Shown here: positions 1 through 53,973 of the stretch, piece after piece
Position numbering within the stretch: the stretch's first letter is position 1
Layout of the letters: each line of letters begins with the position of its first letter
Source: a virus
Lineage: Duplodnaviria > Caudoviricetes
Strand: one strand, 5' to 3'
DNA: 53,973 bases
IMG/VR virus record: IMGVR_UViG_3300042294_003360
Location: 1-53,973 of that record
The notes under the pieces: model-generated
Told to the model about the DNA's origin: nothing
Seen by the model: only the letters and a program-made list of their open reading frames with translations
Database searches by the model: none
Position numbers and translations under genes: made by a program

Positions 1-196
1 TATGAGTAGCAAGCATTCCAACCAAGACCCTGCTTGCTGCCCCCCGACACAGGCCCTGCATAGCAACCCATCAAGGACGCGAACGACGCGTGACCAACCC
101 CATAGCAGTGAGACAGCGAGTAGCGGCTGCCGAGTAGACCCTTCCCATAGGTCGATTTATCACCTGTGGGGCAACATAAGGGAGCTCGGTAGTGAC

Positions 197-252
197 GCGT
201 GTCCGCGACTACATTCGTCGCGCTGAAGATGGGGCAGCACCCCGAAACACGT
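197..252 (+). ncRNA. Hammerhead ribozyme, type III (HH0)
   Basis: GCGTG-TC | stem I CGCGAC/GTCGCG (204-222) | CTGAAGA (223-229) | extra T | stem II GGGG-cagca-CCCC | GAAA | CACGT. Predicted cleavage after C203 (GUC). Confidence 0.8.
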
Positions 253-264
253 AAACCGAACGAC

Positions 265-468
265 ATGAACTACGCACAGGCACTTAAAACGCTCCGCTTC
301 GCCAAAGAAATTTATGTTTATGTGGTCTACTCAAATGTCGGCACGTTCGTCAAACTTGACAAAACGGCCATCGTAAAGCAGTTCCTTGAAATGGATGAAG
401 AAGAGTTCGATGGCGTTGAATTCAATGTCCGCCTTGTGGACGATGGCACGACTGCTCTCATCGGTTGA
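265..468 (+). CDS. Small early hypothetical protein (MNYAQALK...)
   Basis: In-frame ATG at 265 of ORF 199..468, just after HH0. Confidence 0.75.
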   Translation: MNYAQALKTLRFAKEIYVYVVYSNVGTFVKLDKTAIVKQFLEMDEEEFDGVEFNVRLVDDGTTALIG

Positions 469-509
469 TGCAGATATACTGACATTACTTGGATGTCATT
501 TGACATTCT

Positions 510-548
510 ACCCTGCACTGGTTGGGCGGTTCGATTCCGCAGCAGGGT
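510..548 (+). ncRNA. Mini-tRNA-like element T1
   Basis: ACCCTGC/GCAGGGT stem, linker ACTGGTTGG, GCGG-TTCGATT-CCGC T-arm, followed by CTAAA. Confidence 0.8.
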
Positions 549-562
549 CTAAATTCATTCCC

Positions 563-733
563 ATGTACACCATCACGGAAGTGACACACTACATCACGGG
601 AGAGCGCGGATATGCCGTCATCGACGAAAACGGGATGTATGCCGATGGCGAGTTCTATTCCAGTGAGAGCGAGGCTCTTGCAGCAGCCGCTGACCTTGAG
701 TTGTATGATTCCCCCGCCCCACAGGTGAACTGA
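563..733 (+). CDS. Small acidic early hypothetical protein (MYTITEV...)
   Basis: ATG at 563. Its stop is the TGA within the CTGATGA core of HH1. Confidence 0.7.
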   Translation: MYTITEVTHYITGERGYAVIDENGMYADGEFYSSESEALAAAADLELYDSPAPQVN

Positions 734-775
734 TGAGGCTTTATGAGCCGAAACCGCCACATGGCGGTCTTCACC
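724..775 (+). ncRNA. Hammerhead ribozyme, type I (HH1)
   Basis: GGTGAA-CTGATGA-GGCT(ttatg)AGCC-GAAA-CCGCC(acat)GGCGG-TC-TTCACC. Canonical core, predicted cleavage after C769. Confidence 0.95.
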
Positions 776-788
776 AAAAAATACACGC

Positions 789-1079
789 ATGTCAAAATCA
801 GCAACCCCCTTCAAGCACAACAACGGGTTCTTTCGCTACATGGACTGCTCCACATGCCACATCCGCAAGGATGTAAGCAAATCCATCACGGACATTGAAT
901 CTCTCATCGTATATCCCCATGATTACGGATGGTGGGTCTTTGTTCCCGAGGAAATTTATGACGATGTACCCAAGTGCCTTCGTGACATCCTCTTTTACGC
1001 ACGGGGCGGCAACGCTCAGTGGGTCAAGTTGGATGTAGATGGATGGACATGGGACGCTCTGCCCAAGTATAATTGGTAG
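789..1079 (+). CDS. Early hypothetical protein
   Basis: 96-aa ORF starting 19 nt after the HH1 cleavage site. Confidence 0.8.
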   Translation: MSKSATPFKHNNGFFRYMDCSTCHIRKDVSKSITDIESLIVYPHDYGWWVFVPEEIYDDVPKCLRDILFYARGGNAQWVKLDVDGWTWDALPKYNW

Positions 1080-1093
1080 TCCACAGACCTACA

Positions 1094-1145
1094 GGTTAAC
1101 TGATGAGCGGTCAATCCGCGAAACCGCCCACGGGCGGTCTTAACC
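1094..1145 (+). ncRNA. Hammerhead ribozyme, type I (HH2)
   Basis: GGTTAA-CTGATGA-GCGG(tcaat)CCGC-GAAA-CCGCC(cacg)GGCGG-TC-TTAACC. Predicted cleavage after C1139. Confidence 0.95.
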
Positions 1146-1158
1146 AAAAAAACGCGCA

Positions 1159-1563
1159 ATGAAGTACGTAATCGTCCACACATGGAACGGAGAGGGCTAC
1201 TCTTCGGGAAACACCGCAGAGGTGATGGAGTTCTCTTCCGATGACAAGGCGCAGCAGTACATCGTCGAGCAGGCGCAGCAGGAAGCCAATGCGCTTGCTG
1301 AATTCACGGAAGAATGGGGCAATGTATCCTTCGACGATGACGAAGACCAAGGCTCGGTTCAATGGTTCGCGTTCACCACCGACACCTATGGGGTGGTCAT
1401 CCGAACCAACGTCAACGAGGCGCAACTCGTGAACGAGCAGGAGTACCACGAGCAGCTGAAGGCAGCCCTCGCGCAGGCCGACCCCGAGGAGGAGGTTGAG
1501 GATGAGAATCCGTTCATCTCCGCGTACGATGGGGAGTACGATTATCAGTTCATCAAGTTCTGA
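1159..1563 (+). CDS. Highly acidic early hypothetical protein
   Basis: 134-aa D/E-rich ORF, 19 nt after the HH2 cleavage site. Confidence 0.85.
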   Translation: MKYVIVHTWNGEGYSSGNTAEVMEFSSDDKAQQYIVEQAQQEANALAEFTEEWGNVSFDDDEDQGSVQWFAFTTDTYGVVIRTNVNEAQLVNEQEYHEQLKAALAQADPEEEVEDENPFISAYDGEYDYQFIKF

Positions 1564-1578
1564 TTCCCCCGACCCACA

Positions 1579-1628
1579 GGTTAACTGACGAGCCTTCAGT
1601 AGGCGAAACCCCTTCGGGGGTCTTAACC
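1579..1628 (+). ncRNA. Hammerhead ribozyme, type I (HH3)
   Basis: GGTTAA-CTGACGA-GCCT(tcagt)AGGC-GAAA-CCCC(ttcg)GGGG-TC-TTAACC. Predicted cleavage after C1622. Confidence 0.95.
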
Positions 1629-1642
1629 ATAAAAAACGCGCC

Positions 1643-1822
1643 ATGAGCAAACGCAAAAGCTACCTGCTGATTGCCGCCATCATCATCTTGGCGGCTCTCG
1701 CGGACAACCTGTCCGACAATCCGCAGGATCACCCAAAAGAGCCTGCGCACACCTGCACCGATACAACCCACGCCACCTGCGATGGGCAGTGCCAGTGTGA
1801 TGGAATGGAATGCACGGAGTGA
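1643..1822 (+). CDS. 59-aa protein with hydrophobic N-terminus and Cys-rich C-terminus (not in ORF track)
   Basis: MSKRKSYLLIAAIIILAALA...CTDTTHATCDGQCQCDGMECTE*, 20 nt after the HH3 cleavage site. Confidence 0.75.
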   Translation: MSKRKSYLLIAAIIILAALADNLSDNPQDHPKEPAHTCTDTTHATCDGQCQCDGMECTE

Positions 1823-1855
1823 TGGTCTTCGGTCGGTTCGACTCCGACCGCTCCG
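1815..1855 (+). ncRNA. Mini-tRNA-like element T2
   Basis: CGGAGT/GCTCCG, linker GATGGTCTTC, GGTCGG-TTCGACT-CCGACC, then CTAAA. Confidence 0.8.
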
Positions 1856-1894
1856 CTAAACTGCGCTGCACAGAATCATGCAGCACCGCGCACC

Positions 1895-2068
1895 ATGGAA
1901 CAAGTAAAAAAAGCCGCCATCACGGCACAACTAAAGAACCTCGAAGAGGCGTATGCCATCCTCGAGCAGTGGGCCACATCAGTAGGTGGTGACGAGGTAG
2001 CAAAAGAGGCCAACTCCATTTGGCAGAGGGCTATCCTCGATTTGTTGGCCGCAATGGATGGCGAATAG
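1895..2068 (+). CDS. 57-aa early hypothetical protein (MEQVKKAA...; not in ORF track)
   Basis: ATG 1895 to TAG 2068, filling the slot between T2 and T3. Confidence 0.75.
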   Translation: MEQVKKAAITAQLKNLEEAYAILEQWATSVGGDEVAKEANSIWQRAILDLLAAMDGE

Positions 2069-2077
2069 CCCCCCCCC

Positions 2078-2122
2078 AACCTGCTCCCGCAGAGGGCAGC
2101 CAGTTCGTGACTGGCGCAGGTT
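2078..2122 (+). ncRNA. Mini-tRNA-like element T3
   Basis: AACCTGC/GCAGGTT, linker with mini-stem CCC-gcaga-GGG, GCCAG-TTCGTGA-CTGGC. Preceded by a poly-C tract. Confidence 0.75.
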
Positions 2123-2133
2123 CAAAAAAAGCT

Positions 2134-2165
2134 TTTGCAGTTTTCCACAAACCATTCTACATTTG
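2134..2165 (+). promoter_or_regulatory. Bacteroidota primary-sigma promoter
   Basis: TTTG (2134-2137), 20-nt spacer, TACATTTG (2158-2165). Matches the -33/-7 consensus TTTG-N19-21-TAnnTTTG. Confidence 0.75.
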
Positions 2166-2181
2166 TCAAAAATCACCCACC

Positions 2182-2517
2182 ATGAACACCTACAAGTTCC
2201 AATTCAAGTCCAAGTCGGGCACTTGGGCAGACGTTCACACGATGAACTTCTACGCCGCGAATCTTGACGATGCCGTCAAGCAGGCCAACCTGTACAAGTC
2301 GCAGCACGACATCGTCCACATGATGTTCCTGTCCGTTAGTGATGTTCGCAGAACCATCTCGGTTGGCGAACTTATCGACCGGCTGATGCAGGTAGAGGAC
2401 AAGTCGCTCCCTGTGTTCATCTACAACGATGGCGAAAGGCACGAGTTGTGCGAGTCCGTCCCTGTGGATGACACAATCGAGGGGCAGGTCGATATCAATG
2501 TAAAGATCGAGAACTGA
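2182..2517 (+). CDS. Early hypothetical protein (MNTYKFQF...)
   Basis: In-frame ATG 2182 of ORF 2020..2517. Confidence 0.8.
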   Translation: MNTYKFQFKSKSGTWADVHTMNFYAANLDDAVKQANLYKSQHDIVHMMFLSVSDVRRTISVGELIDRLMQVEDKSLPVFIYNDGERHELCESVPVDDTIEGQVDINVKIEN

Positions 2518-2553
2518 TTGGATGCAGGCGGGGTTCGACTCCCCGCCCAGTTC
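2511..2553 (+). ncRNA. Mini-tRNA-like element T4
   Basis: GAACTG/CAGTTC, linker ATTGGATGCA, GGCGGGG-TTCGACT-CCCCGCC, then CTAAA. Confidence 0.85.
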
Positions 2554-2567
2554 CTAAACTATCCACC

Positions 2568-2834
2568 ATGAAGCGCATCAGCAAGCAAGCAAAAGCCATC
2601 GCGGACGCCCACATTGAGGCCCGCAAGTCCGGCAACTTTGACAACCCTCGCTGCACCACCCGAGATGAGGTCATAGCTGCCCTCCGCGAGGGCAAGACCA
2701 TCGAGGCCGTCCTCGATCAAGTGGAGACCAAGTTCACCTCCATCCATGCCATCATCCTGTCAAGGGTTCTCTTCCATGAGAGCCACAACTACAGGTCGGG
2801 AGTCTACAAGGGTTTCCGTATCCTGCTCGACTGA
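2568..2834 (+). CDS. Early hypothetical protein
   Basis: 88-aa ORF between T4 and T5. Confidence 0.8.
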   Translation: MKRISKQAKAIADAHIEARKSGNFDNPRCTTRDEVIAALREGKTIEAVLDQVETKFTSIHAIILSRVLFHESHNYRSGVYKGFRILLD

Positions 2835-2841
2835 TTCCCCC

Positions 2842-2885
2842 GAACTGCTATGGTATCCGATCGGGTTCGACTCCCGATGCAGTTC
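2842..2885 (+). ncRNA. Mini-tRNA-like element T5
   Basis: GAACTGC/GCAGTTC, linker TATGGTATCCG, ATCGGG-TTCGACT-CCCGAT, then CTAAA. Confidence 0.85.
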
Positions 2886-2900
2886 CTAAACTACACCACC

Positions 2901-3080
2901 ATGACACACGAAAATGTCAGCACCGCGTCCGGCCTCACCGAAGAGCAGAAGAAGGTCATCCTGTATGCCTACCTCGACCTCAAAGGTTCGATGGAATCTC
3001 CCAACGACCACGATTACGATGGTCAGAAGCAGACCATCAAGGAACTTGAGGAGATGTTCCCCTTCGTCAAGGAGGCATAG
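2901..3080 (+). CDS. Small early hypothetical protein (MTHENVST...)
   Basis: In-frame ATG 2901. Confidence 0.8.
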   Translation: MTHENVSTASGLTEEQKKVILYAYLDLKGSMESPNDHDYDGQKQTIKELEEMFPFVKEA

Positions 3081-3088
3081 TCCCCCCC

Positions 3089-3134
3089 GAACTGATAGCA
3101 TAGGGCGCAGGCGGTTCGACTCCGCCATCAGTTC
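3089..3134 (+). ncRNA. Mini-tRNA-like element T6
   Basis: GAACTGAT/ATCAGTTC, linker AGCATAGGGCGCA, GGCGG-TTCGACT-CCGCC. Confidence 0.85.
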
Positions 3135-3153
3135 CTCAACAAACCAAACACGC

Positions 3154-3549
3154 ATGAAACACATGAACGACATCGACGGCAACATCCTCCGCAAAGGAGA
3201 CTCTGTAGTAGTACTTGATACCTCCGAACTGGAAGGCGAGACGCCCATCCGAGGCATGCTCCTGCATGTGGCAGGAGGTGACCCCGAATCCAACTACATC
3301 GACTTCGGTTCGTACGGATTCTACGGCCACCGGGTTCTCAAAATAAAGGGGAATCTCTACCCCACTGACTACGTCATCTTCGATGGCACGGACGCGGTCC
3401 GTTTCAGCAACGGAGACATCATCGTCTATTCCGACATGATGGAGGCGGTTCGCGACTCCGAAGGGGTTGTAGGTTGGGGCGTCACCCCCTGCACCTCTCT
3501 CCCTGTACACCTACAGGAGGAATTGCGCAGGCAGGTGGCGCAGAACTGA
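3154..3549 (+). CDS. Early hypothetical protein (MKHMNDID...)
   Basis: In-frame ATG 3154 of ORF 2914..3549. Confidence 0.8.
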   Translation: MKHMNDIDGNILRKGDSVVVLDTSELEGETPIRGMLLHVAGGDPESNYIDFGSYGFYGHRVLKIKGNLYPTDYVIFDGTDAVRFSNGDIIVYSDMMEAVRDSEGVVGWGVTPCTSLPVHLQEELRRQVAQN

Positions 3550-3556
3550 TCCCCCC

Positions 3557-3602
3557 GAACTGGCAGGAAAGACCGAACGCAGAGCGATACTGCGGCCAGT
3601 TC
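3557..3602 (+). ncRNA. Mini-tRNA-like element T7 (variant loop)
   Basis: GAACTGGC/GCCAGTTC, linker AGGAAAGACCGAA, CGCAG-AGCGATA-CTGCG, then CTAAA. Confidence 0.7.
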
Positions 3603-3617
3603 CTAAAACCAAACACC

Positions 3618-4058
3618 ATGAAGTACACGCACAGGATTACGGCAAGCGTCCCGACCATTTATCAGTACGGCAGCATCAACAGGCTGATGGCAGCCGATGT
3701 AAAGAAATGGCCGGACGGCTCGTTCCACGCCCACATCGACTTCCTCGACTACGAGTCGGCAGAGCTTCACCTTCTCGCCCTCGCCATCAAACTGGCAGAG
3801 AACGACAAGGAGCAGGAGGCGATGGAGGAGGAGGTTCAGAGGTATGGTCAGCTGACATACGACAACTGCACCGCCAATCTCGTGGAGATCGACTACCCTT
3901 GGGCCGTCGAAATCCGCAGCAACGGCGAGGTTCTCGGAGAGTTTGAAACCTACGAGGAGGCGGCGGCCTACCTGCATGAACAGGAGCAGGATGACAGGGA
4001 CAACGACCAGTACGAGGAGGACTACTACTACCTCCGCAGGGTCGGTTGGCCGGCATGA
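3618..4058 (+). CDS. Acidic early hypothetical protein (MKYTHRIT...)
   Basis: In-frame ATG 3618 of ORF 3474..4058. Confidence 0.8.
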   Translation: MKYTHRITASVPTIYQYGSINRLMAADVKKWPDGSFHAHIDFLDYESAELHLLALAIKLAENDKEQEAMEEEVQRYGQLTYDNCTANLVEIDYPWAVEIRSNGEVLGEFETYEEAAAYLHEQEQDDRDNDQYEEDYYYLRRVGWPA

Positions 4059-4059
4059 C

Positions 4060-4100
4060 AGGGCGATGGTCGCAGGGGAGGCTCGACTCCTCCCCGCCCT
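4060..4100 (+). ncRNA. Mini-tRNA-like element T8
   Basis: AGGGC/GCCCT, linker GATGGTCGCA, GGGGAGG-CTCGACT-CCTCCCC, then TCTAAA. Confidence 0.8.
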
Positions 4101-4116
4101 TCTAAATCAACACACC

Positions 4117-4530
4117 ATGAACATGGGAATCTCAAGGGTTGAAGGCCACCCCGACGAATTGGTCTTGAAGTACAACCAGTACCTGCACACATTAGGTACT
4201 GAAAAAATGCTGGCTGCTATGGAGAGGTTCATCGTAAGTGACGCGATGCCCGAACTGATTGGGCACATACAGGACGAGGTCTTCGCAGACCTGTCAAGTA
4301 TGGTCTATGCCCTCGACGAGGGGTGGGTTCTTACCTACACAAGCACGGACACATACCGACTTGAAAAGGAGGACGGCTCGGACAGGTTCGCATCTGATGC
4401 ACAGGCAGTCGAGCACGTCTACAGGGAGGCGTTCTACGGATCGAAAATCCACAAGGAGGCGGTAGCATTCATGGCTGCCCATGCGACACCCGATGAGATT
4501 AAATTCATCGCGCGGTGCGCAAGCGTCTGA
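4117..4530 (+). CDS. Early hypothetical protein (MNMGISRV...)
   Basis: In-frame ATG 4117 of ORF 3943..4530. Confidence 0.8.
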   Translation: MNMGISRVEGHPDELVLKYNQYLHTLGTEKMLAAMERFIVSDAMPELIGHIQDEVFADLSSMVYALDEGWVLTYTSTDTYRLEKEDGSDRFASDAQAVEHVYREAFYGSKIHKEAVAFMAAHATPDEIKFIARCASV

Positions 4531-4573
4531 CAGGGCGATGGTCGCAGGAGGGGTTCGTCTCCCCTCCGCCCTG
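4531..4573 (+). ncRNA. Mini-tRNA-like element T9
   Basis: CAGGGC/GCCCTG, linker GATGGTCGCA, GGAGGGG-TTCGTCT-CCCCTCC, then CTAAA. Confidence 0.8.
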
Positions 4574-4610
4574 CTAAACTGAGTCCGGCAGCATCCGGAC
4601 ATCAACAACC

Positions 4611-4814
4611 ATGACAAACAGAGACAAAGACCTGCTCGAGGTGCTGTACCTCTTCCTCGAGCAGAACGAGGCCAAGCTCCGCGAGGAGTACGAAGAGGTT
4701 CGGGAGGGTCTTGAGGCCATGAACCACCCGATGACCTACCCGCAGTTCTGCGTGACCATGTTTACCGGATTCATGGAGGACAAACAGGTCAACATCACCT
4801 CACAATTAAACTGA
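4611..4814 (+). CDS. Small early hypothetical protein
   Basis: 67-aa ORF after T9. Confidence 0.8.
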   Translation: MTNRDKDLLEVLYLFLEQNEAKLREEYEEVREGLEAMNHPMTYPQFCVTMFTGFMEDKQVNITSQLN

Positions 4815-4815
4815 C

Positions 4816-4905
4816 ATGTACGCAGCAACCATCGCACTCATCATCATCGCAGCAGCCGCAGCAGCCAAGGGTCTCAACGGCCCGGAGGACATCACCAAAT
4901 ACTGA
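4816..4905 (+). CDS. 29-aa hydrophobic peptide (MYAATIALIIIAAAAAAKG...)
   Basis: ATG 1 nt after the previous stop, ends just before a terminator hairpin. Confidence 0.5.
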   Translation: MYAATIALIIIAAAAAAKGLNGPEDITKY

Positions 4906-4911
4906 ACACAA

Positions 4912-4947
4912 CCCCCGAGGGTTACACTTCGGGGGCGTTCATTTTTT
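4912..4947 (+). terminator. Intrinsic terminator closing the early cassette array
   Basis: CCCCCGAGG-gttaca-CTTCGGGGG hairpin, then TTTTTT after a short gap. Confidence 0.6.
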
Positions 4948-4959
4948 AAAAAAGAAAAC

Positions 4960-5157
4960 ATGCAAGACTTAACATTCGAGCAGTGGCTCGTTCACATCAG
5001 ACGCGAATTAGGTTACCAACCCGAAATGATCAAAAGGTATGAAGCAGCAATCGGAACTACGCAAGGTATTCAGAGCGGTACACAACGCCCTGCAAGAACT
5101 GGAAGGAATGACTCCAAGCAAAAGAAAAAAGACCATCCTGTCGCTGATGGAGATTAA
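4960..5157 (+). CDS. Hypothetical protein
   Basis: ATG after an A-rich leader. Overlaps the next ORF. Confidence 0.55.
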   Translation: MQDLTFEQWLVHIRRELGYQPEMIKRYEAAIGTTQGIQSGTQRPARTGRNDSKQKKKDHPVADGD

Positions 5158-5239
5158 CATGGACTTGGAAGAAAAGATTATCGAACATCTAAACAAATCC
5201 AATGAGAGAGTATCAGAAGATTCGCCAGTACATTCTTGA
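5039..5239 (+). CDS. Hypothetical protein
   Basis: 66-aa helical-looking ORF. Confidence 0.6.
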   Translation: MKQQSELRKVFRAVHNALQELEGMTPSKRKKTILSLMEINMDLEEKIIEHLNKSNERVSEDSPVHS

Positions 5240-5546
5240 GAAGTACCTCATCGACATCAACGACAGGTGCAGGGCTTTGCCTCGAGCCTATCTGAAGGCC
5301 ATCGCAAGCAATGTCCTCAACAAGATGTACGACTTTAACCACGCACAGATATCAGCATGGCTCGGCATCCACCGAACCACCATCTACCACTACCTCGAGC
5401 ATCACGATGGGAAGTACCAGTGCCATCCCGGCTATGGAGAGATGTTCGATGACGTGTGGGGATACATGATGGGGCAGCCGGACATCGTGGTCAATCTAAA
5501 CGAGATAAAGCAAATCCTATGCGATACATTCGGGACGGAAGAGTAA
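5202..5546 (+). CDS. HTH DNA-binding protein resembling the DnaA C-terminal domain
   Basis: AQISAWLGIHRTTIYHY resembles the DnaA domain IV HTH (EIG..FGGRDHTTV.HA). Confidence 0.6.
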   Translation: MREYQKIRQYILEKYLIDINDRCRALPRAYLKAIASNVLNKMYDFNHAQISAWLGIHRTTIYHYLEHHDGKYQCHPGYGEMFDDVWGYMMGQPDIVVNLNEIKQILCDTFGTEE

Positions 5547-6634
5547 TCGTCGTGAAGGACGGAATGACGCACGACACAGGCATCCGCGCGTATCACCACA
5601 GGTTCGGCAGCAGGGGGTGTTTCCTTGGCGAATTCTCCTACACCCAATGGGCGAACACGGCCATCGACAAGTTCTCCAATGGAGAACCGATAGGCGAATG
5701 GAAGGACGATTCAATCGGTGGGTACTGCGAGAGGTACGTGCATCAAATGCACACAGGGGAGATTCGTTCCAACAGGGGGACGCCCTACTCGGCCAACTCC
5801 ATCAAGACCTACTCCAACGCAGCCTCCTGCCTATACAGGTACGGCAAAGGAATCCGACTGGACTCCGACAGGAAAGCCTACAGGGAATTCTTCAAGTCAT
5901 TCGAGCATTGGCTCGAGCGTTCGATGAATGCCAAGAGTAGGTTCGAGATCGTGAACGCCATCCGCATCATGGTTCGTTACTGGTGCAGGGAGTTAGACCT
6001 GCCCATCCCGGAGACACACCGCATGGCCAAGACCGAGAAGCCCATCGTGGTCGTTCCCCCCGAACTGATATCCAAGGTGGTCAGCGATGACAGGTTCATG
6101 GGCACTCTCATCCAACCCCATTGGGAGGTGGCGGTGACCATCCTTCTGACCACGCTTCGCCTTTCGGACATCCAGTCGCTGCGACCCGAGCATCTCGAGG
6201 GTGGGTTCATCGTGAAGGACACACAAAAGACCGGGCAGAGGGTGACCATCCCGATCCCCGAGAGGCTGCGTGAAATCTTCAGCCGAAACCTAAAGAACGG
6301 GAGCCTGTGGTCGGGCCCGATCGACAACATCCATGGCGGTCTGAAGTTGGTTTTCCAAAAGTATCCCGAGATGTGGGAGATGCACACCGCAGGGGTTACC
6401 CAGTACCTGTGGGAATTCGTCACCCCCCACATGCTGCGAAAGTCAGCCATCACAGGTCTGATTTTTTTCGGGGTGGATCACATCAGTGTCCGCCATGCCT
6501 CCGGCCACAGCCAAAACTCTTCCGCATTTTGGAAGTACGTCAAGGTCGTGGACTCAAGGTTCAAGTCAGCCATCTCGGACGGGCATGCTGCGATGTTGAA
6601 AACTATTTCCACAACCAGTTCGCAACCTTCCTAA
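5519..6634 (+). CDS. Tyrosine recombinase/integrase family protein
   Basis: Catalytic set: TTLRLSD (R), QKTG (K), HMLRKS (HxxR), SGHS (H), WKYV (Y). Start uncertain. Confidence 0.85.
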   Translation: MRYIRDGRVIVVKDGMTHDTGIRAYHHRFGSRGCFLGEFSYTQWANTAIDKFSNGEPIGEWKDDSIGGYCERYVHQMHTGEIRSNRGTPYSANSIKTYSNAASCLYRYGKGIRLDSDRKAYREFFKSFEHWLERSMNAKSRFEIVNAIRIMVRYWCRELDLPIPETHRMAKTEKPIVVVPPELISKVVSDDRFMGTLIQPHWEVAVTILLTTLRLSDIQSLRPEHLEGGFIVKDTQKTGQRVTIPIPERLREIFSRNLKNGSLWSGPIDNIHGGLKLVFQKYPEMWEMHTAGVTQYLWEFVTPHMLRKSAITGLIFFGVDHISVRHASGHSQNSSAFWKYVKVVDSRFKSAISDGHAAMLKTISTTSSQPS

Positions 6635-6639
6635 CTTTG
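6632..6639 (+). promoter_or_regulatory. Bacteroidota -7 promoter box
   Basis: TAACTTTG, 4 nt before ATG 6644. Confidence 0.55.
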
Positions 6640-6643
6640 GAAC

Positions 6644-6868
6644 ATGGAATTCAATTACAACGAGGATACCATGAAGGTAGGTCGGGTTACCTACGACCTC
6701 AAGGAATACCGAAGGTGGCTTTTGAACGAGCACCCTGCCCTGTGTCAGAACCACTTCATCAAGGCGATTCGGAAGCAGGGGAAAACCGTTTTCACCTACG
6801 ACTGGATGAGCATCTACTCGACCGCAAGAGAATATCGTTTACACATACAATTCATCAATCAACTATGA
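6644..6868 (+). CDS. Hypothetical protein
   Basis: 74-aa ORF coupled by ATGA overlap to the ERF gene. Confidence 0.75.
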   Translation: MEFNYNEDTMKVGRVTYDLKEYRRWLLNEHPALCQNHFIKAIRKQGKTVFTYDWMSIYSTAREYRLHIQFINQL

Positions 6869-7428
6869 GTTTACTCAAATCACTGGCTCAGTTTCAGAAG
6901 AGCGTCAAGCCTATCGTCCGCAGCGCGGCGAATCCGTTTTTCAAAAGCAAGTACGCACCTTTGTCTGACATTCAGAAGCACATCAAGCCCGACCTCGAGT
7001 CCGCAGGGCTGGTCATCACACAAGCCTGTGAGTTCAACGACAACGGCCTGTTCGTGGTGACCAAGGTCATCCACGTCGAGTCGGGGGAGTCGCTTCAGTC
7101 GGTGTTCCCGGTCGTGACCAAGGGGCAGACATCGCAGGACTACGGAAGCGCGGTGTCTTACGCCAAGAGGTATTCCCTCACCGGCCTGCTGAACTTGATC
7201 GTGTCCGACGAGGACGATGACGGAAACCGGGCGGCAGCCACCTCCGAAAAGCCTGTCCTCGGGGACGAGCAGCTGGCAGGGATGTTTGACTTTATCAGCA
7301 AGGGCAAGAGCCGCGAGGTGCTGACCGCCCTCAACAGGTACGAGGTGACCGAGCAGCAGCGCAAGTCCATCAACGATGCCATCAACAACTTCAAAGCCGA
7401 GTCAACCAAAAAAGCGGCAAGCAAATGA
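6865..7428 (+). CDS. erf: ERF-family ssDNA annealing protein
   Basis: NPFFKSKYAPL and GSAVSYAKRYSLTGLLNL...DDDG motifs. ATG 6865. Confidence 0.9.
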   Translation: MSLLKSLAQFQKSVKPIVRSAANPFFKSKYAPLSDIQKHIKPDLESAGLVITQACEFNDNGLFVVTKVIHVESGESLQSVFPVVTKGQTSQDYGSAVSYAKRYSLTGLLNLIVSDEDDDGNRAAATSEKPVLGDEQLAGMFDFISKGKSREVLTALNRYEVTEQQRKSINDAINNFKAESTKKAASK

Positions 7429-8417
7429 AACTGACACGCATACCGACAAGAAACCTGTCTGAACAGGAGTGGCAGGAAGTCCGCAAGGAATTAACCACAA
7501 GAGGAATGGTCGGGGGCAGCGATGCCTCCACCCTCCTCGGGTTGAACCAGTACAAGTCCCCCATCAACATGTTCTACCAAGCGGTGGGACTGGTGGACCA
7601 GCCGAACAAGATGAACTCGGCAATGCTCCACGGAAAGCAGCTCGAGGACTACGTTGCCAAGTGTTGGCAGTACTGGGATGGGACTGAAGAGGGATGGGTG
7701 AACAACACCAACACCGGTAACAAAATCAAGAAGTACCGGAAGGTAAAGGCGATCATCATCAACCCGAAGTTCCCGTCCCTGTTCGCAAACATCGACGGCA
7801 GGATAGTCCAACACCCGGACCGAACCGACCCCGGCATCCTCGAGGTCAAAACCATGTCCGGATATTCCGCCGACATGTGGGAGGCAGGAATCCCTCCGGG
7901 ATACTACGCACAGATTCAGCACTACATGCTCGTGACCGGACTGAAGTGGGGTGAACTGGTGTACTTGAAGGACGGAAGGGAACTGGGAGTGGTGAAGTTC
8001 GAGGAGGATAAGGACATGCAGAACAGAATCCTTGATGCGGCCAACGAGTTCAAGGAGAGGGTCGAGATGGCATACGCTGCCATCAAGGACGCCCGATCCC
8101 CCGAGGAGGCGATGCAACTGGCCTCCAACTATGAGCCCCCGGCGGACAACACGGACGCGTTCAGCAAGTTCATCTCCGAAAAGCACAAGGCCCGGCAGGA
8201 CGAGGTTCACATACACGGAGGCATCGAACTGGCCAAGTGGATGGACGAGTACCGCGAAGCGTCCGAGACGATCAAGGAGCAGGAGTTACGCAAGACTCTC
8301 GCGTCGAACACCCTGCGTCAGCACATGGAGAAGGAGGGGGCAACAGCGATGACCCTGCCGAACGGAAAGATTACATGGCGTCAAAAATTCACGGTGAAGT
8401 ATGAACAAGTTGCGTGA
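7425..8417 (+). CDS. YqaJ-like viral recombinase exonuclease
   Basis: GGSDAS.LLG.N.YKSP, ANIDG, LEVKT and YYAQIQHYM motifs. Confidence 0.9.
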   Translation: MKLTRIPTRNLSEQEWQEVRKELTTRGMVGGSDASTLLGLNQYKSPINMFYQAVGLVDQPNKMNSAMLHGKQLEDYVAKCWQYWDGTEEGWVNNTNTGNKIKKYRKVKAIIINPKFPSLFANIDGRIVQHPDRTDPGILEVKTMSGYSADMWEAGIPPGYYAQIQHYMLVTGLKWGELVYLKDGRELGVVKFEEDKDMQNRILDAANEFKERVEMAYAAIKDARSPEEAMQLASNYEPPADNTDAFSKFISEKHKARQDEVHIHGGIELAKWMDEYREASETIKEQELRKTLASNTLRQHMEKEGATAMTLPNGKITWRQKFTVKYEQVA

Positions 8418-12481: not shown

Positions 12482-12572
12482 TGCGGGGTGGCAGAATGGC
12501 AAATGCAGGCTCATGGCATTAGTCTGGACACAAGAAGCCCAGTCCACGCAGGTTCGATTCCTGCCCCCGCAG
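12482..12572 (+). tRNA. Atypical tRNA-like RNA (long variable arm, degenerate anticodon arm, nominal GGC)
   Basis: TGCGGGG/CCCCGCA acceptor, D arm GCA-gaatggcaaa-TGC, T arm GCAGG-TTCGATT-CCTGC. Confidence 0.7.
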
Positions 12573-12625
12573 CAGTTTGTTTCATGGTGTATTTTTCCCG
12601 GGGCGTTTCTACGCCCGGGGTTTAT

Positions 12626-12721
12626 CGGAGGGTGGCGGAATGGAAGACGCGCCGAAAGGTAGGTACGGTATGAATCCCGATTAAACAATCCTTATTGCAG
12701 GTTCGATTCCTGCCCCTCCGG
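12626..12721 (+). tRNA. Atypical tRNA-like RNA without a canonical anticodon arm
   Basis: CGGAGGG/CCCTCCG acceptor, D arm GCG-gaatggaaga-CGC, T arm GCAGG-TTCGATT-CCTGC. Irregular middle. Confidence 0.7.
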
Positions 12722-12780
12722 CAACAGCAGTTGGTTTTACCGGCCCGTTTCCACGGGCTGGATTTCTAAAAGACTAAGCA

Positions 12781-12885
12781 TCCCGGTTGGCGTAAGCCCC
12801 AATGAATAAGGCTCAAGGTAACGCCCCAACAGGAATCCCCTCCTTAATAGGTTGGGAGATGCGGGTTCGAGTCCCGCACCGGGAG
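12781..12885 (+). tRNA. Atypical tRNA-like RNA with expanded D and anticodon loops
   Basis: TCCCGGT/ACCGGGA acceptor, GCGT/ACGC D stem with inserted hairpin, CCAAC/GTTGG stem with 20-nt loop, T arm GCGGG-TTCGAGT-CCCGC. Confidence 0.7.
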
Positions 12886-17183: not shown

Positions 17184-20100
17184 TTACCTGTTCTCCTGCA
17201 TCCACTGCTTCAGACTCTCAGTCAGAGACTTAGACAGATCCACCAGTTCTCTCTTGGACTGCTCCAGCGCCATCGGGTCTGTGATATCCATTGCCTTGTC
17301 GACCTCTGCGTTGAACGACTTGTAGATCTTTGTCCCGGTGAGCTTGTTGTCCTTTGCGAACTTCCTGAACTCCAGTATGGCCGGCTCGTCAAGGCCAAGT
17401 GCAGCCTCCTTGGCTTCCTTGTCTTTCTTGTCCTTGATGTATTGCTCCAGTTCCTGCTTGACCCGGGGCGCCTCGTCGATCAGATCCCTTCCGTAGCGGG
17501 CACGTTCTGCCTTGTCCTCGATGGTGAAGTAGAACTCCACCTTGTCGTTGAATGTCTTGAACGGCTTGGAGTTTGCTACTCCCTTGCCCTTGGCAAACTT
17601 GAACAGATCCTGCAGTGACTTGGAACTGTAGGCCGAGAACTCCTTGGCAAAACCGGTATCGTTCAGACCGAACTTTGTCCTTGCGTCTATCTCTCCCAAG
17701 TTGGAAGCCTTGATCGCCAAGTTTCCGAAGTAAGAAAACTGACCCTTGATAAAGAAGTCAACCATCCTAGGGTCGGTCTCTTTGAATACAGACACAGCGC
17801 CGGATATGAACTTTCCCAAGTTGGACGCCGTAGTTGTTCCCTTTCTCTCCTCGATGTCGAGCTGGTATTCGTACGGAGATATGATGTTCTTCTCCCGGAA
17901 GAAGTCGTAGTTCGCCTGAACCTCGATGATCTTCTGGTACGGACCGGCAAGGTCTGACTCCTCGAACATGAACATGCTCTTGGCTATCGTACCCCCGAAC
18001 CCATCGAATGCCTTCTCTCTCCCGTTCACGTAGCTGAGTGCCCTGTCTATGGAGGCGGCTATCACACCTAGTTCGAACGGCTTTGGTATGGACATCCAAA
18101 CATCTCCAACCTTGAAGTTGTAGAACATGTCCCTCTGGTAGTCCAGAAGATCCTCGTATTCTTTCTCGTCATCCTCGTCAGAGTGGTTCAGATACCACAG
18201 AGCGACCTGAGGAAGTACGGTAAACAGTGCGGTCCTAGCCACGAACGATCCCGGCGATTCTGTCACCCTTTTGTACGCAGACCTCAGACCCTGCACCGCT
18301 GCGTTTGAGAACGGAACAAGCTGGTTGATCCACTTCATGTGCCTTCCTGCCACGGCAAAGTCTATCAGACTCCTAGCCTTTGAAGAGGCAAGAACCGTAG
18401 CACTTACCGGGTCCATCCCTTCCTTGATCGCCTTGTCGTATGCGTTCTTGTACTCGGCTATCCTGTTGGCGTTCTCACTCCTGTACAGGAAGTTTTGGTA
18501 CTTCGTCCAAATCTTTGGCAGGTACTCCTTCGTGGTGACTATCGTTCCGGCTTTGCTTATCTTCTGCTCTGCATCCTTGAGAAGGGAGTAGTACATCTCC
18601 TTGCTCTTGAAGTACATGCCTGAGTTAAGGGCCCCCGATCTGGCAGCCTTGTCGTGTTCATCCTTGCTGTAGACCAGTGCCCTGACCTGATCAAATAGGT
18701 TACCCTCGTTGGATATGATTATCCTGTGCTGCGTGTCCCTCACTATGTTCCTCATGGCGAACACAGGGAAGTTGGTAACCGTCCACCGAAGCATCCGGGG
18801 AAGTGCAGTAAGAAGCGGAGGCAAGTTGTACGATGCCTCGCCTATCCCCTTGATGGCATTAGCCACGTCTGTATGGAACTTCCAATACTCCGGCTTGCCA
18901 TTGACAAACACGGTAACCACGTCTTTACCCGGACCGGACACAAGGTATCCTATGTCTGACATTCTGTTGGGCTGACCCTGACCCATCATCCTAGGGTCGA
19001 CAAGCAAGTTCCTGAAGTTCAAAAGAACCTCATTCCTGTCGGCCTCCCTGTAACCCCTGTACACGTTGTCGAACATAGACACATACGGATTCTGTATGGT
19101 CTTGGTAGACCCCTGTATGGCCATCAGAACCTCATCCTTTGATCCAAGGTTCTTAGGCGATCCGAACTTCGACTCTATGATCTGACCCGGCTCAGTCTCC
19201 TGTATGCGGTTCATGGCCACATAGTGCAGGTTGTTCTGCTTGATGAACAGGTACCCCCCGATCAGATTGCCATCGGCGTCGTACTCATCGTAGGCCAGCC
19301 TGCCCTTGTCGACCATGTAACGGAGCACGGCGTCAGACATCTCCCTGTACCTCCTGACAGCCTCAACAAGCTTGTCGTAGTCTGCCCTTAACCGAATCTG
19401 ATTGATCGCCTCCTCGGCAGTCTCGAAGTCAGTAAAGATCCCACCTCCGATACCGCTAAGTATGTCGGCCCTTTTGAATCTGAAACCAAGCTCGACAGTC
19501 CTCTCTGCCACCATCAAGGCAACCATGGCGTTCATCCTATCCTTCAGCACCTCTCCGTCCATGGCAACCACCCTCCCATTGGAATTGTAGTCTGCAATCG
19601 GATCCAACAGCCAAGACACGTTCATCACATTGCCACTGTCCAGTACCCTCTCGAAGGTGCTGTCGATGAGACCGTTCTCCATCATGTCTCCGAACTTGGC
19701 ATCGAATCCGCCGAGCAGCCTAAGGAGTATCTCGGGATCGTTCTTTGGGACGATGGTGTCCATCCCACGTATGCCCATCAAGTGCTTGATGGCGTTGTCG
19801 AATATGTAGAACTCATCCAAGAACGCCGTGCCCAGCCTGTCCCAGTAGCTGATTGAGAAGTTTCCGGACTTCTTCTTCTTGAACATCTGTGCCAGTGTGC
19901 CCGGCAATTTCTCCGGATCCATCTGCACGTTGGACATAATCCTGTCAATTCCAGACATGCCGGCCCAGCCCCTTATGTCGTCAGAAAATGCCTTCAGATT
20001 TTCCCTTGTGGCGTCCGGAACGACTTGGTTGAATATCCTAGCAATGTTCGGAGCGGCAACAACCGTTGCGTCTGGGTTCACCAAGTACGCCCTCATAAAC

Positions 20101-28160: not shown

Positions 28161-28170
28161 TTTGTATTGT

Positions 28171-29244
28171 TTACTTGAAGATCGGTAAGCCTGTAGCAGG
28201 ATCAATCCCCATAAATGTTCTGGTTGTTGATTTCTTTTTGGTTGTTGTTTTTGCAGCAGCCCTAGGCTGTGCTGGCTTGGCCTTCTGCTGCGTTACGCCA
28301 AGATCAAACGATCCGACCTTCACAAGATCAATCTGATCAGTCAGGTATTTCCTTCGGTATAGGTCGACCGCCATCTCATTGTTAGGGTCTATGTACGACT
28401 TGTCCGAAGGATCTTTGCCAAAATTGTTCAGCATTATTTCATTCATCGCCCCAGCGTCGATCCACGTCTTCATGACAAAGTCAAGATCAGACCTCTTGTT
28501 GTTGTAAATGTACTCAAAAACATCTGCACGGACAAGTCCGTCGGCATCCTTTTTAAGGACAGGCTTTTCAGATTTAACGCCAGTCTTTTTATCGACAACC
28601 GTTTCGAAGTCGTATATCCATGGCATGGTAGACCTCCAGTCAGAAGCTTTCTTTTCAAGGCCGGTTGGATTCATGCTAGAGCTTCCTGCGGAAGTGTACC
28701 TTGGCGCCTCCTTCATGATCTGAAGGAACCTGTTAACTCCGAGCTTATTGTCAACTATTACCCCGGGATCTTTTTTTATGGCATCGTTTATGAACGCGAT
28801 GGGATCGGACAATTTTTCCGGGTCCATAGCATTTGTCGCAATGTATCCGGACAGTATCTGAGAAGCCCTACCCTTTTCTATTCCGAGGTTTGGCGCCATC
28901 TTGTTGATGTATTCCATCCCATGATCACGGAAGTTCTTTATCGAGTTCGACTTTACGTTGAGGTCATTAAGGTATTCGGCGGCAATTCTTTTGGCATCCG
29001 CCAACCCAACCCTTCCCGGTCCGACCGCCATGGTCAGATCGTTTACGTACTGCCGGCCAAGTCCGTCAGCTACCACCCGATCCAGATTCCTGATCTGCCT
29101 AGCAAAGTCATACGGTATGGCCGACGCCGCCTTCTGGTCGGCAATCTCCGCCCTCTGCATGAGGAGATCCTGCCTGCTTTGCATCTGCCTAAGACTAAGC
29201 AGGGCCTGTGCGGGAGCGTCACTGTATTGAATGGGTACCGGCAT
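28171..29244 (-). CDS. Putative internal virion protein
   Basis: 357-aa ORF between the pilot-like and giant proteins. Confidence 0.65.
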   Translation of the reverse strand: MPVPIQYSDAPAQALLSLRQMQSRQDLLMQRAEIADQKAASAIPYDFARQIRNLDRVVADGLGRQYVNDLTMAVGPGRVGLADAKRIAAEYLNDLNVKSNSIKNFRDHGMEYINKMAPNLGIEKGRASQILSGYIATNAMDPEKLSDPIAFINDAIKKDPGVIVDNKLGVNRFLQIMKEAPRYTSAGSSSMNPTGLEKKASDWRSTMPWIYDFETVVDKKTGVKSEKPVLKKDADGLVRADVFEYIYNNKRSDLDFVMKTWIDAGAMNEIMLNNFGKDPSDKSYIDPNNEMAVDLYRRKYLTDQIDLVKVGSFDLGVTQQKAKPAQPRAAAKTTTKKKSTTRTFMGIDPATGLPIFK

Positions 29245-53544: not shown

Positions 53545-53973
53545 TTAAGCCATAGGTGGCATCTGTTCCACGGGGAACGATTCCTCCATAGGCGCCTGAT
53601 TCATAAGCTCTTCGTCGTCCGGCATGCCCTTGTTCAGCTTGGCCACGCTCTTCTTGCCGGACTTCTCTATCTCCTTGGACTGGATCTTTCCGGTCTGCCT
53701 CATCTCCTCGAGCTGGAGTTCGAAGCCGTACTTCATCTCCATGAGCTTGGCGTCCAGCTCTTTCTCAACCTGAATGACCTGAGCCTTGACCTGACCCTCG
53801 ACCTGAAGCGTCTGCTGCTTGGCCTGCTCTGCGGCCATGGCAGACTGCTGCTGGACCTGAGCATTCATCTGCTGCATCCTCATGGCCTTGGCCTCCTCCT
53901 CCTCCCGGCGCTTGCGGATCTTGTAGGCAAGAAGCTGCTGGGCCACCTTCAGGTTGTCGGTGTTCTGTATGGT
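53545..53973 (-). CDS. Portal protein, C-terminal fragment (truncated by window)
   Basis: Open to the window edge, Q/E/A-rich coiled-coil tail, upstream of scaffold and capsid. Confidence 0.6.
   Translation of the reverse strand, partial: TIQNTDNLKVAQQLLAYKIRKRREEEEAKAMRMQQMNAQVQQQSAMAAEQAKQQTLQVEGQVKAQVIQVEKELDAKLMEMKYGFELQLEEMRQTGKIQSKEIEKSGKKSVAKLNKGMPDDEELMNQAPMEESFPVEQMPPMA

Follow-up and report, generated by a model that had tools for sequence, protein, structure and literature searches.

Hammerhead ribozymes that occur in clusters and flank single phage genes were published in 2011 together with the same processing idea that is considered here, and such clustered ribozymes cleave in vitro as parts of ~2-kb transcripts (PMC3088659). 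In plant mitochondria, t-elements direct cuts by RNase P and RNase Z that form mRNA ends, and an excised t-element, cut on both sides, carries an added C/A (PMC1920247). RNase Z cuts precursors that lack CCA directly past the discriminator (PMC8549757). The phage locus described below has hammerheads and, in addition, mini-tRNA mimics. A literature search found no description of mini-tRNA arrays or of a mixed hammerhead/mimic system, and only these two look undescribed.

The window, that is, the whole stretch of 53,973 nucleotides that was analysed, belongs to a phage whose host is probably a Bacteroidota species. The source of the phage is a lake. Structure-rule scans in Python located 13 elements on the + strand of 197-4947, namely four hammerheads (HH0, of type III, and HH1, HH2 and HH3, of type I) and nine mimics of an acceptor stem plus T arm (T1 to T9). 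The proposed order of HH0, T1, HH1, HH2, HH3 and T2-T9, one element for each of 13 genes, was confirmed by these scans. The operon may be an early one, judging by its position only. Upstream of the first device lies a conserved non-coding leader (1-196, + strand), which aligns with 5219-5440 of a complete 68-kb relative (L198), downstream of a promoter-like region. The contig starts inside the leader, and the promoter therefore lies outside the window.

The 13 frames preceded by an element, all on the + strand and each given from its ATG, encode small proteins. They are gene 0 (265-468, 67 aa, no known family), gene 1 (563-733, 56 aa), gene 2 (789-1079, 96 aa, with a DUF5983 C-terminal domain, E 7.3e-16), gene 3 (1159-1563, 134 aa), gene 4 (1643-1822, 59 aa, Cys-rich with a hydrophobic N-terminus), gene 5 (1895-2068, 57 aa), gene 6 (2182-2517, 111 aa), gene 7 (2568-2834, 88 aa), gene 8 (2901-3080, 59 aa), gene 9 (3154-3549, 131 aa), gene 10 (3618-4058, 146 aa), gene 11 (4117-4530, 137 aa) and gene 12 (4611-4814, 67 aa). 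A 14th frame, gene 13 (4816-4905, + strand, 29 aa, hydrophobic), has no element in front, and a device is also missing at one junction in the related locus L199. The unit is closed by an intrinsic-terminator-like hairpin (4912-4935) and a T run, together spanning 4912-4945 on the + strand.

A grammar shared by all slots, as first proposed, holds in part. The leaders are A/C-rich, and TGATTCCCCC stands before both HH3 and T5, in each case with its TGA as the stop codon of the upstream gene; it also precedes HH1, where the TGA is out of frame with gene 1. That gene stops inside HH1, at the UGA of the core CUGAUGA. The C tract is less general, since five or more C residues are found upstream of only 6 of the 13 elements. 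No Shine-Dalgarno-like purine run is present in any of the 13 leaders. Ahead of gene 6 lies a promoter-like site (2134-2165, + strand; TTTG, 20 nt, TAnnTTTG), which we take to be the Bacteroidota promoter consensus. It is the sole match to this pattern within the window; nevertheless, as 0.40 matches are expected by chance, the site is weak on its own.

The hammerheads are all on the + strand. HH0 (197-252, predicted cut after C203) was found by the structure-rule scan, and its three-way junction is the minimum-energy fold. It has one extra U after the CUGAAGA core (after A9), and a homologue with the same extra U fills the first slot of L199 (4365-4423). Between the two, 14 predicted pairs are common, 3 of them changed on both sides, in a comparison where stem I is misaligned. 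The counterpart of HH0 in L198 appears decayed when read by eye, so that the first device is dispensable. HH1 (724-775, predicted cut after C769), HH2 (1094-1145, after C1139) and HH3 (1579-1628, after C1622) were identified by scan, fold and alignment, and carry every core position of the published hammerhead consensus (PMC3088659). The hammerhead rule gave 4 matches in the window and none in 80 unrelated phage loci (~1.07 Mb). An Rfam scan of the window gave no match at the gathering score, and below that score only Hammerhead_3 matched, weakly and mis-threaded, at 698-759 (17.6 bits vs 48.5). The distance from the predicted cut to the ATG is mostly 19-31 nt. Against cleavage stand the core insertion of HH0 and the failure of Rfam models to recognise the hammerheads; in addition, stem I has only 6 bp and there is no obvious loop-loop contact; minimal hammerheads can be slow at cellular Mg2+.

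The mimics, all on the + strand, combine a stack of 12-13 bp with a loop of sequence UUCGA, and 13 nt past the loop comes the tail CUAAA. T1 (510-548), followed by CUAAAU, is a weak covariance-model match (E 0.088), and a lake variant of it has another T-arm sequence at its end, immediately ahead of position 542. T2 (1815-1855, E 5.4e-7) shares 8 nt with the end of gene 4, including the stop codon, and has a CUAAAC tail and then a small hairpin; its counterpart in L101/L198 shows, by eye, paired changes in both stems. T3 (2078-2122), supported by the structure rule and fold and missed by the covariance model R1, belongs to a subclass whose spacer contains a 3-bp hairpin and whose loop is UUCGUGA. 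In place of CUAAA it has the tail CAAAAAAA, and the promoter-like site then follows. A similar element is present in another locus (L195, 181-226), and two lake variants found on the same contigs, 2088 C>T and 2094 G>A, preserve a spacer pair of T3. T4 (2511-2553; structure rule, fold and covariance model) covers the final 7 nt of gene 6, again with its stop codon. T5 (2842-2885) matches the covariance model with E 3.4e-7. T6 (3089-3134, E 1e-4) and T7 (3557-3602) belong to a 46-nt class, with a 13-nt spacer that contains a 2-bp mini-hairpin in T6; T7 has a fold z of -4.1 and an R1 E value of only 3.5, and its loop, AGCGAUA, deviates from the T-loop consensus. T8 (4060-4100, E 1.7e-12) begins one base past the gene 10 stop codon, while T9 (4531-4573, covariance model) begins directly past that of gene 11 and has, like T2, a CUAAAC tail and a small hairpin.

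A loose T rule gave 13 matches in the window, 9 of them on one strand within 510-4573, compared with 0-9 (mean 3.65) in 20 shuffles of the whole window. The motif GGTTCRANYCC occurs 8 times against 0.51 expected; five of these occurrences belong to T elements and the other three to the tRNA-like genes near 12.5 kb. Within the element region ARAGORN reports no tRNA, and CCA is absent 3′ of the mimics and of the phage's own tRNA-like genes.

Mimics and hammerheads both recur as arrays in other viral contigs, which allows their pairing to be compared. The choice of loci was biased, since the retrieval patterns kept the T loop, the tail or parts of stem I constant; moreover, the structure rules themselves demand pairing, and alignment A4 is fitted to the model. 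For 31 mimics from the window and 15 other loci, 97.4% of 390 cells are paired, as opposed to 58.1% in shuffles and 44-56% with the partner slid; 12 of 13 pairs are changed on both sides, and none of 500 shuffles attains the covariation score. In the 46-nt class, whose alignment is free of gaps and fitted to no model, all 75 cells are paired and 7 of 15 pairs are compensatory. A hammerhead alignment of HH1-3 with 29 of 146 unique compact type I hammerheads from viral contigs retains pairing through changes on both sides at 11 of 15 predicted pairs. Non-Watson-Crick cells are G.U rather than A.C in mimics (10 vs 1) and hammerheads (9 vs 1), which argues that sense-strand RNA is under selection. 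The pattern is thus one of covarying stems with conserved loops and tails, and not of a primary sequence conserved without covariation. Among 44 elements with loop and tail, the stack measures 12 bp in 14, 13 bp in 25 and 10-11 bp in the remaining 5, with no stack above 13 bp; background matches, by contrast, drop steadily from 9 bp upward. In 38 unique elements, the CUAAA-like tail begins exactly 13 nt past the loop (CUAAA itself in 25), and the first ATG follows at 14-15 nt in 15 and at 10-26 nt in 29. In both devices the spacing to the following ATG is short and fixed.

Comparison with related phages shows slots that change element type. Orthologues of gene 4 follow a type I hammerhead in the window, a type III hammerhead in L199 and a T-like element in L198; gene 3 lies after HH2 here and after a T-like element in L194 (orthologue with 41% identity). 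Similarly, the gene 7 orthologue in L198 (86% identity) has a different element in front, and a gene 11 relative in L199 (33% identity) sits behind a mimic of another spacer class. This supports the functional equivalence of the devices and, with it, the proposal that two unrelated RNA devices fill the same slot. As they are swapped before the same gene, hammerheads and mimics probably both cut a long message into single-gene pieces.

We favour, at slightly better than even confidence, RNA punctuation of the phage polycistron by two interchangeable devices that would both cut at their 3′ edge; from the elements we infer the following steps, no RNA run having been found to contain the sequence. 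Host RNA polymerase would transcribe the operon, probably from a promoter upstream of the contig start. Type I hammerheads would self-cleave after GUC, leaving the compact ribozyme with a 2′,3′-cyclic phosphate at the 3′ end of the upstream message, and the downstream message would begin with a 5′-OH and a short unstructured leader. In the first slot, the type III hammerhead would cut at its own 5′ edge and detach only the long leader, so that the ribozyme body would remain on the downstream RNA. The mimics, whose GG-containing spacer may imitate the tRNA elbow and which encode no CCA, would be read by the host tRNA 3′-end machinery. RNase Z is the likeliest candidate, and it would cut past the discriminator, either immediately ahead of CUAAA or inside it. 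This would give products with the geometry of hammerhead products: a folded cap upstream and, on the next gene, a leader that is mostly 10-26 nt long. An RNase P cut on the 5′ side may follow later or never take place. A scan of 48 frames turned up no phage-encoded RNase P, RNase Z or RNA ligase, which implies host enzymes. In plant mitochondria, 5′ maturation reportedly precedes 3′ processing, and this may count against bacterial RNase Z acting on a mimic with a whole mRNA as its 5′ extension. The departures of T3 (tail, promoter-like site) and T7 (loop) and the genes that have no device also speak against the model.

The position of stop codons bears on which side is cut. With upstream frames assigned by a crude rule, 61 of 107 hammerheads contain the end of the upstream frame (27 via the TAA of stem I and 15 via the UGA of the core), as does the 5′ part of 13 of 40 mimics, T2 and T4 included. 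This fits cutting at the 3′ edge and argues against an obligatory RNase P cut, which had been suggested for the mimics and would remove all or part of these 13 stop codons. Full tRNA-type punctuation, with RNase P at the 5′ side and RNase Z at the 3′ side as in mitochondria, is accordingly unlikely, if still the strongest competitor. It might free mini-tRNAs of ~45 nt, perhaps decoys or sponges for tRNA-directed enzymes. RNase P measures the stack and T loop of minimal substrates, and the 12-13 bp stack and T loop of the mimics match that measure. Plant t-elements, cut on both sides with C/A added (PMC1920247), offer a precedent. The gap from stop codon to mimic is 2-20 nt in 21 of 40 cases, where a 5′ cut would be harmless, and a C tract directly precedes the six window devices mentioned above as well as 10 mimics out of the 38 in the wider collection. 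Nevertheless, a canonical RNase P cut would produce a stop-less message wherever the stop codon is inside the 5′ acceptor strand, and the acceptor stems vary freely, so that a sequence-specific role of the released RNA is unlikely.

Alternatively, only the hammerheads would cleave, and the mimics would stay uncut as folded insulators or as protein- or ribosome-binding modules between cistrons, for instance exonuclease blocks, sites for a tRNA-binding factor or re-initiation aids. The constant spacing to the ATG would suit such a role, and the conserved GG-containing spacer and tail could be a binding site. We regard this as improbable, because the mimics take the place of self-cleaving ribozymes before orthologous genes, which makes little sense if the outcomes differ, and the narrow 12-13 bp stack is the measure of tRNA-end enzymes.

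Still less probable is a role in DNA, as recombination joints or cassette boundaries that shuffle accessory genes in the manner of integron attC or tRNA-derived attachment sites. An array of small same-strand orphan genes split by folded repeats does adjoin a tyrosine recombinase gene (integrase; 5456-6634), relatives differ in gene-device pairings, and lake contigs carry the same hammerhead half on different flanks, which may only mark the end of similarity. However, tolerance of G.U but not of A.C indicates sense RNA, and the slot is shared with hammerheads, which are RNA devices. The element ends lack what we take to be the attC core motifs, the integrase matches a general phage integrase family and only weakly Xer models (26.4 bits vs a cut-off of 220), with no score at the level of integron integrases, and any repeat could yield shuffling as a side effect. 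Finally, functionless debris of decayed tRNA genes or attachment sites is very unlikely: five of the nine elements do carry the exact T-arm motif, and the genome has real tRNA-like genes in other places, but the nine copies are sense-oriented, one per gene, with compensatory changes and constant stack length and start-codon spacing, across at least 16 viral contigs of differing base composition.

If punctuation by two interchangeable devices is what takes place, its likely benefit, in a host that makes no use of Shine-Dalgarno sites, would be that every small gene has an unstructured, free 5′ end and a lifetime independent of the others.

All 13 devices that the sequence-only reading had placed ahead of consecutive early genes were recovered, in the order claimed, on the + strand of 197-4947 by sequence and structure-rule scans, and the array is real. 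It begins with a type III hammerhead (HH0, 197-252), followed by T1, a mini-tRNA mimic made of an acceptor stem and a T arm, then by three type I hammerheads (HH1-3) and finally by the mimics T2-T9. In these 13 slots, that is, the places between an upstream stop codon and the next ATG, the device lies 12 to ~60 nt from the ATG, and the frames opened are 56-146 aa long. A 14th frame, of 29 aa, is without an element, and the unit is closed by a terminator-like hairpin at 4912-4935. In six of the 13 slots, with devices of both kinds, a run of 5-8 C residues separates the stop codon from the device (711-715, 1566-1570, 2069-2076, 2837-2841, 3082-3088 and 3551-3556). Such runs also recur in L194, L198, L199 and L202, loci of related viral contigs that differ in base composition. 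Between their CUAAACUG tail and the ATG, T2 and T9 also have a small hairpin whose loop is CAGNA-like (1862-1890 and 4582-4604); it is kept, with paired changes, in a counterpart in L198 (6700-6730) and could be a 5′-end stabiliser of the cut message.

For hammerheads, the structure rule gave four matches in the window and none in ~1.07 Mb of unrelated phage loci, a control of 80 loci reached through an Erf-like protein, which contain no such elements. The loose mimic rule gave 13 matches in the window, nine of them on one strand inside 4 kb, against a mean of 3.65 on shuffles of the whole window. A covariance model built from six mimics, two of them from the window, recovered T8, T5, T2 and T6 at E <= 1e-4, while T1 was weak, T7 marginal and T3 missed; no further full-length match with E < 2 was present in the window. 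The window is a whole virus contig of 53,973 bases from freshwater, and at least part of its first 5 kb is present in 24 DNA runs, with no run recorded as RNA.

Relatives of the mimics were found with a pattern of T loop plus tail, through the primase protein and with the covariance model. The same mimics occur in arrays in at least 15 other viral loci of widely varied base composition. Although in each locus the loop and tail of one element are biased by the patterns used for retrieval, the remaining members of each retrieved array have the same loop and tail features. In an alignment of 31 mimics fitted to the covariance model, 97.4% of cells are paired, compared with 58% after shuffling and 44-56% after sliding of the partner, and two-sided changes are seen in 12 of 13 pairs. 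The 46-nt class, in a plain alignment free of gaps, has all 75 cells paired and compensatory changes in seven of 15 pairs, one of which sits in the 2-bp mini-hairpin of the spacer. Non-Watson-Crick cells are G.U in ten cases and A.C in one, which argues that selection acts on the sense RNA.

Of 44 elements, 14 have a stack of acceptor and T stems of 12 bp and 25 one of 13 bp; no stack exceeds this length. The T-arm motif GGTTCRANYCC is exact in five of the nine window mimics (T1, T2, T4, T5 and T6), one base off in T8 and T9, and further off in T3 and T7. No CCA is encoded behind the discriminator, which would leave RNase Z unblocked; instead, a CUAAA-like tail begins exactly 13 nt past the loop in 38 of 38 elements, a set chosen by requiring such a tail. 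The ATG comes 14-15 nt after the tail in 15 of these elements and 10-26 nt after it in 29. The spacer nearly always contains GG, which may build an elbow by analogy with the D loop of tRNA. Some mimics have little or no spacer and are plain minihelices with the same loop and a CUAAAC tail (L131, 1567-1607; L118, 1990-2029), and on the reverse strand of L202 two mimics stand in tandem with no gene between them (7800-7918). When genome collections were scanned with a spacer-plus-loop-plus-tail pattern, only one of 120 stretches contained a mimic (L298), and ARAGORN found no tRNA in the 120. The other stretches are chance matches, and the scan is therefore silent on hosts; it also gives no support to the spacer being a tRNA variable loop. 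The L298 genome is small, with one element and no RNase Z match above the cut-off.

The hammerhead core was judged by the criteria of PMC3088659 (C3 U4 G5 A6 N7 G8 A9, G12 A13 A14, A15.1-U16.1 and H17, together with the paired positions adjoining the core). In HH1-3 the core is complete, stem II is closed by a G-C pair, and GUC stands at the predicted cleavage site. They belong to a compact type I family with a 6-bp stem I and a 4-bp stem II, which Rfam leaves unscored and of which 146 unique copies were found in viral contigs, with as many as seven inside one 4-kb locus of a contig. When HH1-3 are aligned with 29 relatives (32 sequences), 11 of 15 pairs keep their pairing through two-sided changes. 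The core of HH0 has one extra U between A9 and stem II, an insertion shared by its homologue in L199; between the two, pairing is kept through two-sided changes in stem III (two) and stem II (one), in a two-sequence alignment in which stem I is misaligned. Both phages with a type III form, the one in the window and that of L199, have it in their first slot. As a separate observation, L335 and L336, loci of one viral contig, have nine or more compact type I hammerheads over ~5 kb, the same punctuation of genes in a form made of hammerheads alone.

Contigs of lake runs add population-level support. In these, a C>T plus G>A pair preserves the spacer helix of T3, and loose ends at 755 and 1609 have HH1- and HH3-like halves together with different sequences, the junctions being at the stem III position. 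The DNA contigs of these runs break at the repeats. Their 'joints' were rejected as evidence of rearrangement, as most have short sides and are probably cross-matches between repeats.

The claim that two devices fill the same slot was borne out by relatives, in which orthologous genes carry different devices. Gene 4, which encodes a small Cys-rich protein, is preceded in the window by a type I hammerhead, in L199 by a type III hammerhead that shares the extra U of HH0, and in L198 by a three-way-junction T-like element. Gene 3 is preceded by HH2 in the window and by a T-like element in L194, and genes 7 and 11 have other mimics ahead of them in relatives. The three-way T-like device is a third class in the same slot (L198, 6431-6487; L199, 4814-4870; L194, 1665-1721 and 4277-4333; L334, 1315-1371). 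Its closing stem of 7 bp covaries and encloses two hairpins, one of 4 bp and one that is short and invariant and has UUCGAU as its loop; CUAAA or CAAA comes after the device, and seven of its 14 pairs are compensatory. Mixed arrays are a minority, since a mimic is also present on only four of 115 hammerhead-bearing locus strands, one of them doubtful. No arrays were seen in Cellulophaga phage phi19:1 (first 16 kb) or phage PJN03 (27.5 kb), cultured Bacteroidota phages reached via the primase, whose early genes are tightly packed.

The position of stop codons bears on which side of the device is cut. By a crude rule for calling upstream frames, these end inside the device for 61 of 107 hammerheads and 13 of 40 mimics (T2 and T4 included). 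Among the 61 hammerheads, 27 frames end on the TAA of stem I and 15 on the UGA of the core, the latter being the stop codon of gene 1 in the window. Because a type I hammerhead cuts at its 3′ edge, it remains part of the upstream RNA, and the overlap is harmless. For mimics, internal stop codons fit a predicted cut just past the discriminator; they disfavour RNase P cutting as an obligatory step, since this would delete the upstream stop codon in those that overlap. Neither RNase P, RNase Z nor an RNA ligase of the phage was found among the 48 frames scanned. The idea that the early polycistron is diced into single-gene messages seems largely right in spirit, with its RNase P step and its novelty in need of correction.

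The most far-reaching proposal, which we hold tentatively and rate a little short of probable, is a modular punctuation kit of swappable cassettes in phages of Bacteroidota-like hosts, in which every device would cut immediately ahead of a short leader. The kit would comprise minimal tRNA mimics of several spacer classes, the three-way T-like variant, and type I and III hammerheads. The cuts would turn a polycistron of accessory genes into capped single-gene messages in these hosts, which do not use Shine-Dalgarno sites. A type III hammerhead would cut at its 5′ edge and, in the first slot, need only detach the long conserved leader.

Among other explanations, an integron attC array has small promoterless genes, folded repeats and an adjoining tyrosine recombinase in common with the operon. 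The recombinase matches the general phage integrase family; Xer-type models score far below cut-off, including one whose name contains 'integron integrase', and there is no match at the level of an integron integrase. Moreover, the ends of the elements do not fit the attC core motif, and selection on the fold acts through the sense RNA, so that this explanation was rejected. Nor are the mimics tRNA genes with a cloverleaf of D and anticodon arms. Only 5-17 nt separate the 5′ strand of the acceptor from the T stem, and both ARAGORN and the Rfam tRNA model were null: ARAGORN called no tRNA in 197-4947, its single call in the window being 12482-12573, and the Rfam model had no match at E up to 10. 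Terminators were rejected, as a scan for intrinsic terminators on the + strand marked no T or HH element; the only GC-rich hairpin with a clear T run directly after it is 4912-4935, and the one other site, 2026-2038, is inside gene 5. Phage attachment sites and RNase III sites were likewise considered for the devices and rejected.

Both kinds of element escape Rfam and tRNA finders, which leaves an annotation gap. Rfam gave no match at the gathering score, the hammerhead clan CL00010 included; the sole hammerhead match at relaxed settings was a mis-threaded Hammerhead_3 at 698-759, with 17.6 bits against 48.5, and HH0 had no Rfam match. A blastn search of 1-8000 against cultured phages gave no match.

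The host is probably a Bacteroidota species. The closest relatives of the primase are from Bacteroidota phages, at about 31-34% identity, a Shine-Dalgarno run is present in none of the 13 leaders, and a Bacteroidota-type promoter pattern has one match, before gene 6, against 0.40 expected, a weak excess. A long conserved non-coding leader, without an Rfam match, lies ahead of the first device in the window (1-196), L198 (5195-5540) and L199 (4040-4365). Positions 1-196 are part of it, with the promoter beyond the start of the contig. One leader hairpin has paired changes in its stem and an identical 17-nt loop between the window and L198; at the position of HH0, L198 has an apparently decayed hammerhead. 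Elsewhere in the window, 12482-12885 (+) holds three successive tRNA-like genes with long internal insertions and canonical T arms at 12551, 12700 and 12864. None encodes CCA, a GC-rich hairpin follows the first two, and the first alone is called by ARAGORN, as a 92-nt tRNA for Ala with anticodon GGC. At 17184-28205 (-) lies the gene of a polyvalent protein of 3673 aa, whose domains include ART-PolyVal (ADP-ribosyltransferase), DUF3990 and LPD38; it is not a virion RNA polymerase. The frame at 53548-53973 (-) runs off the right end without an in-frame continuation at position 1, and the record is thus probably an incomplete linear fragment and no closed circle.

Several known systems resemble parts of this arrangement. 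In animal mitochondria, tRNAs punctuate transcripts, as described by the tRNA punctuation model. In phage T7, host RNase III cuts early and late mRNAs between genes and leaves hairpins on their 3′ ends; the T7 sites are long double-stranded hairpins, whereas here they are tRNA mimics of 12-13 bp or self-cleaving RNAs. Minihelices of acceptor and T arm, 12 bp long, serve as model substrates for RNase P, RNase Z and the CCA-adding enzyme; these laboratory constructs have the same minimal architecture and 12-bp length as the mimics, and the literature searched showed no natural minihelix array in the mRNA of a bacterial virus. In RiboJ insulators and polycistronic tRNA-guide RNA arrays, a ribozyme or tRNA between units frees defined ends. 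These designs are man-made, and the phage array, if cut, would be a natural counterpart with both devices.

The closest match for the mimics, in the portion of Forner et al. 2007 (PMC1920247) drawn on here, is the t-elements of plant mitochondria, tRNA-like folds adjoining mRNA ends that act as RNase P and/or RNase Z signals. Both have the GGTTCRANYCC T arm, and in both tRNA enzymes shape mRNAs, as a prediction in the case of the mimics. In contrast to t-elements, which are organellar, scattered and mostly cloverleaf-like, the mimics form an ordered array with one per gene, measure 41-46 nt without D and anticodon arms, have a CUAAA tail and are swappable with ribozymes. For hammerheads, the relevant portions of Perreault et al. 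2011 (PMC3088659) describe clusters of types I-III between single phage genes or short blocks, often near integrase genes. They propose processing to single-gene mRNAs, report in vitro cleavage of ~2-kb transcripts and a 5′ end of one phage transcript that maps at a hammerhead site, and leave the function open. The claim to novelty is narrowed by those portions, which already contain the hammerhead clusters and the processing idea. The differences are that the same portions mention no tRNA-like elements in those slots, and that the window hammerheads are compact, unscored by Rfam and often contain the stop codon of the upstream frame. No description of mini-tRNA arrays or mixed hammerhead-mimic arrays in phages was found in the main texts of mostly non-subscription literature. 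What appears new is thus the mini-tRNA arrays and the mixed system, while phage hammerhead clusters and tRNA punctuation were known.

If cut as proposed, devices of only 41-52 nt could serve as compact gene separators in engineered Bacteroidota operons. The mimics would be the first natural counterpart in a bacterial virus of mitochondrial tRNA punctuation, which would extend from organelles to bacterial viruses. The role of the many phage hammerheads has been a question since 2011, and gene-for-gene swapping gives a testable answer, namely, the definition of mRNA ends; their equivalence with a signal for host enzymes would, if true, settle this long-unknown role. Finally, the arrangement points to a preference of hosts that lack Shine-Dalgarno sites for messages with short free leaders.
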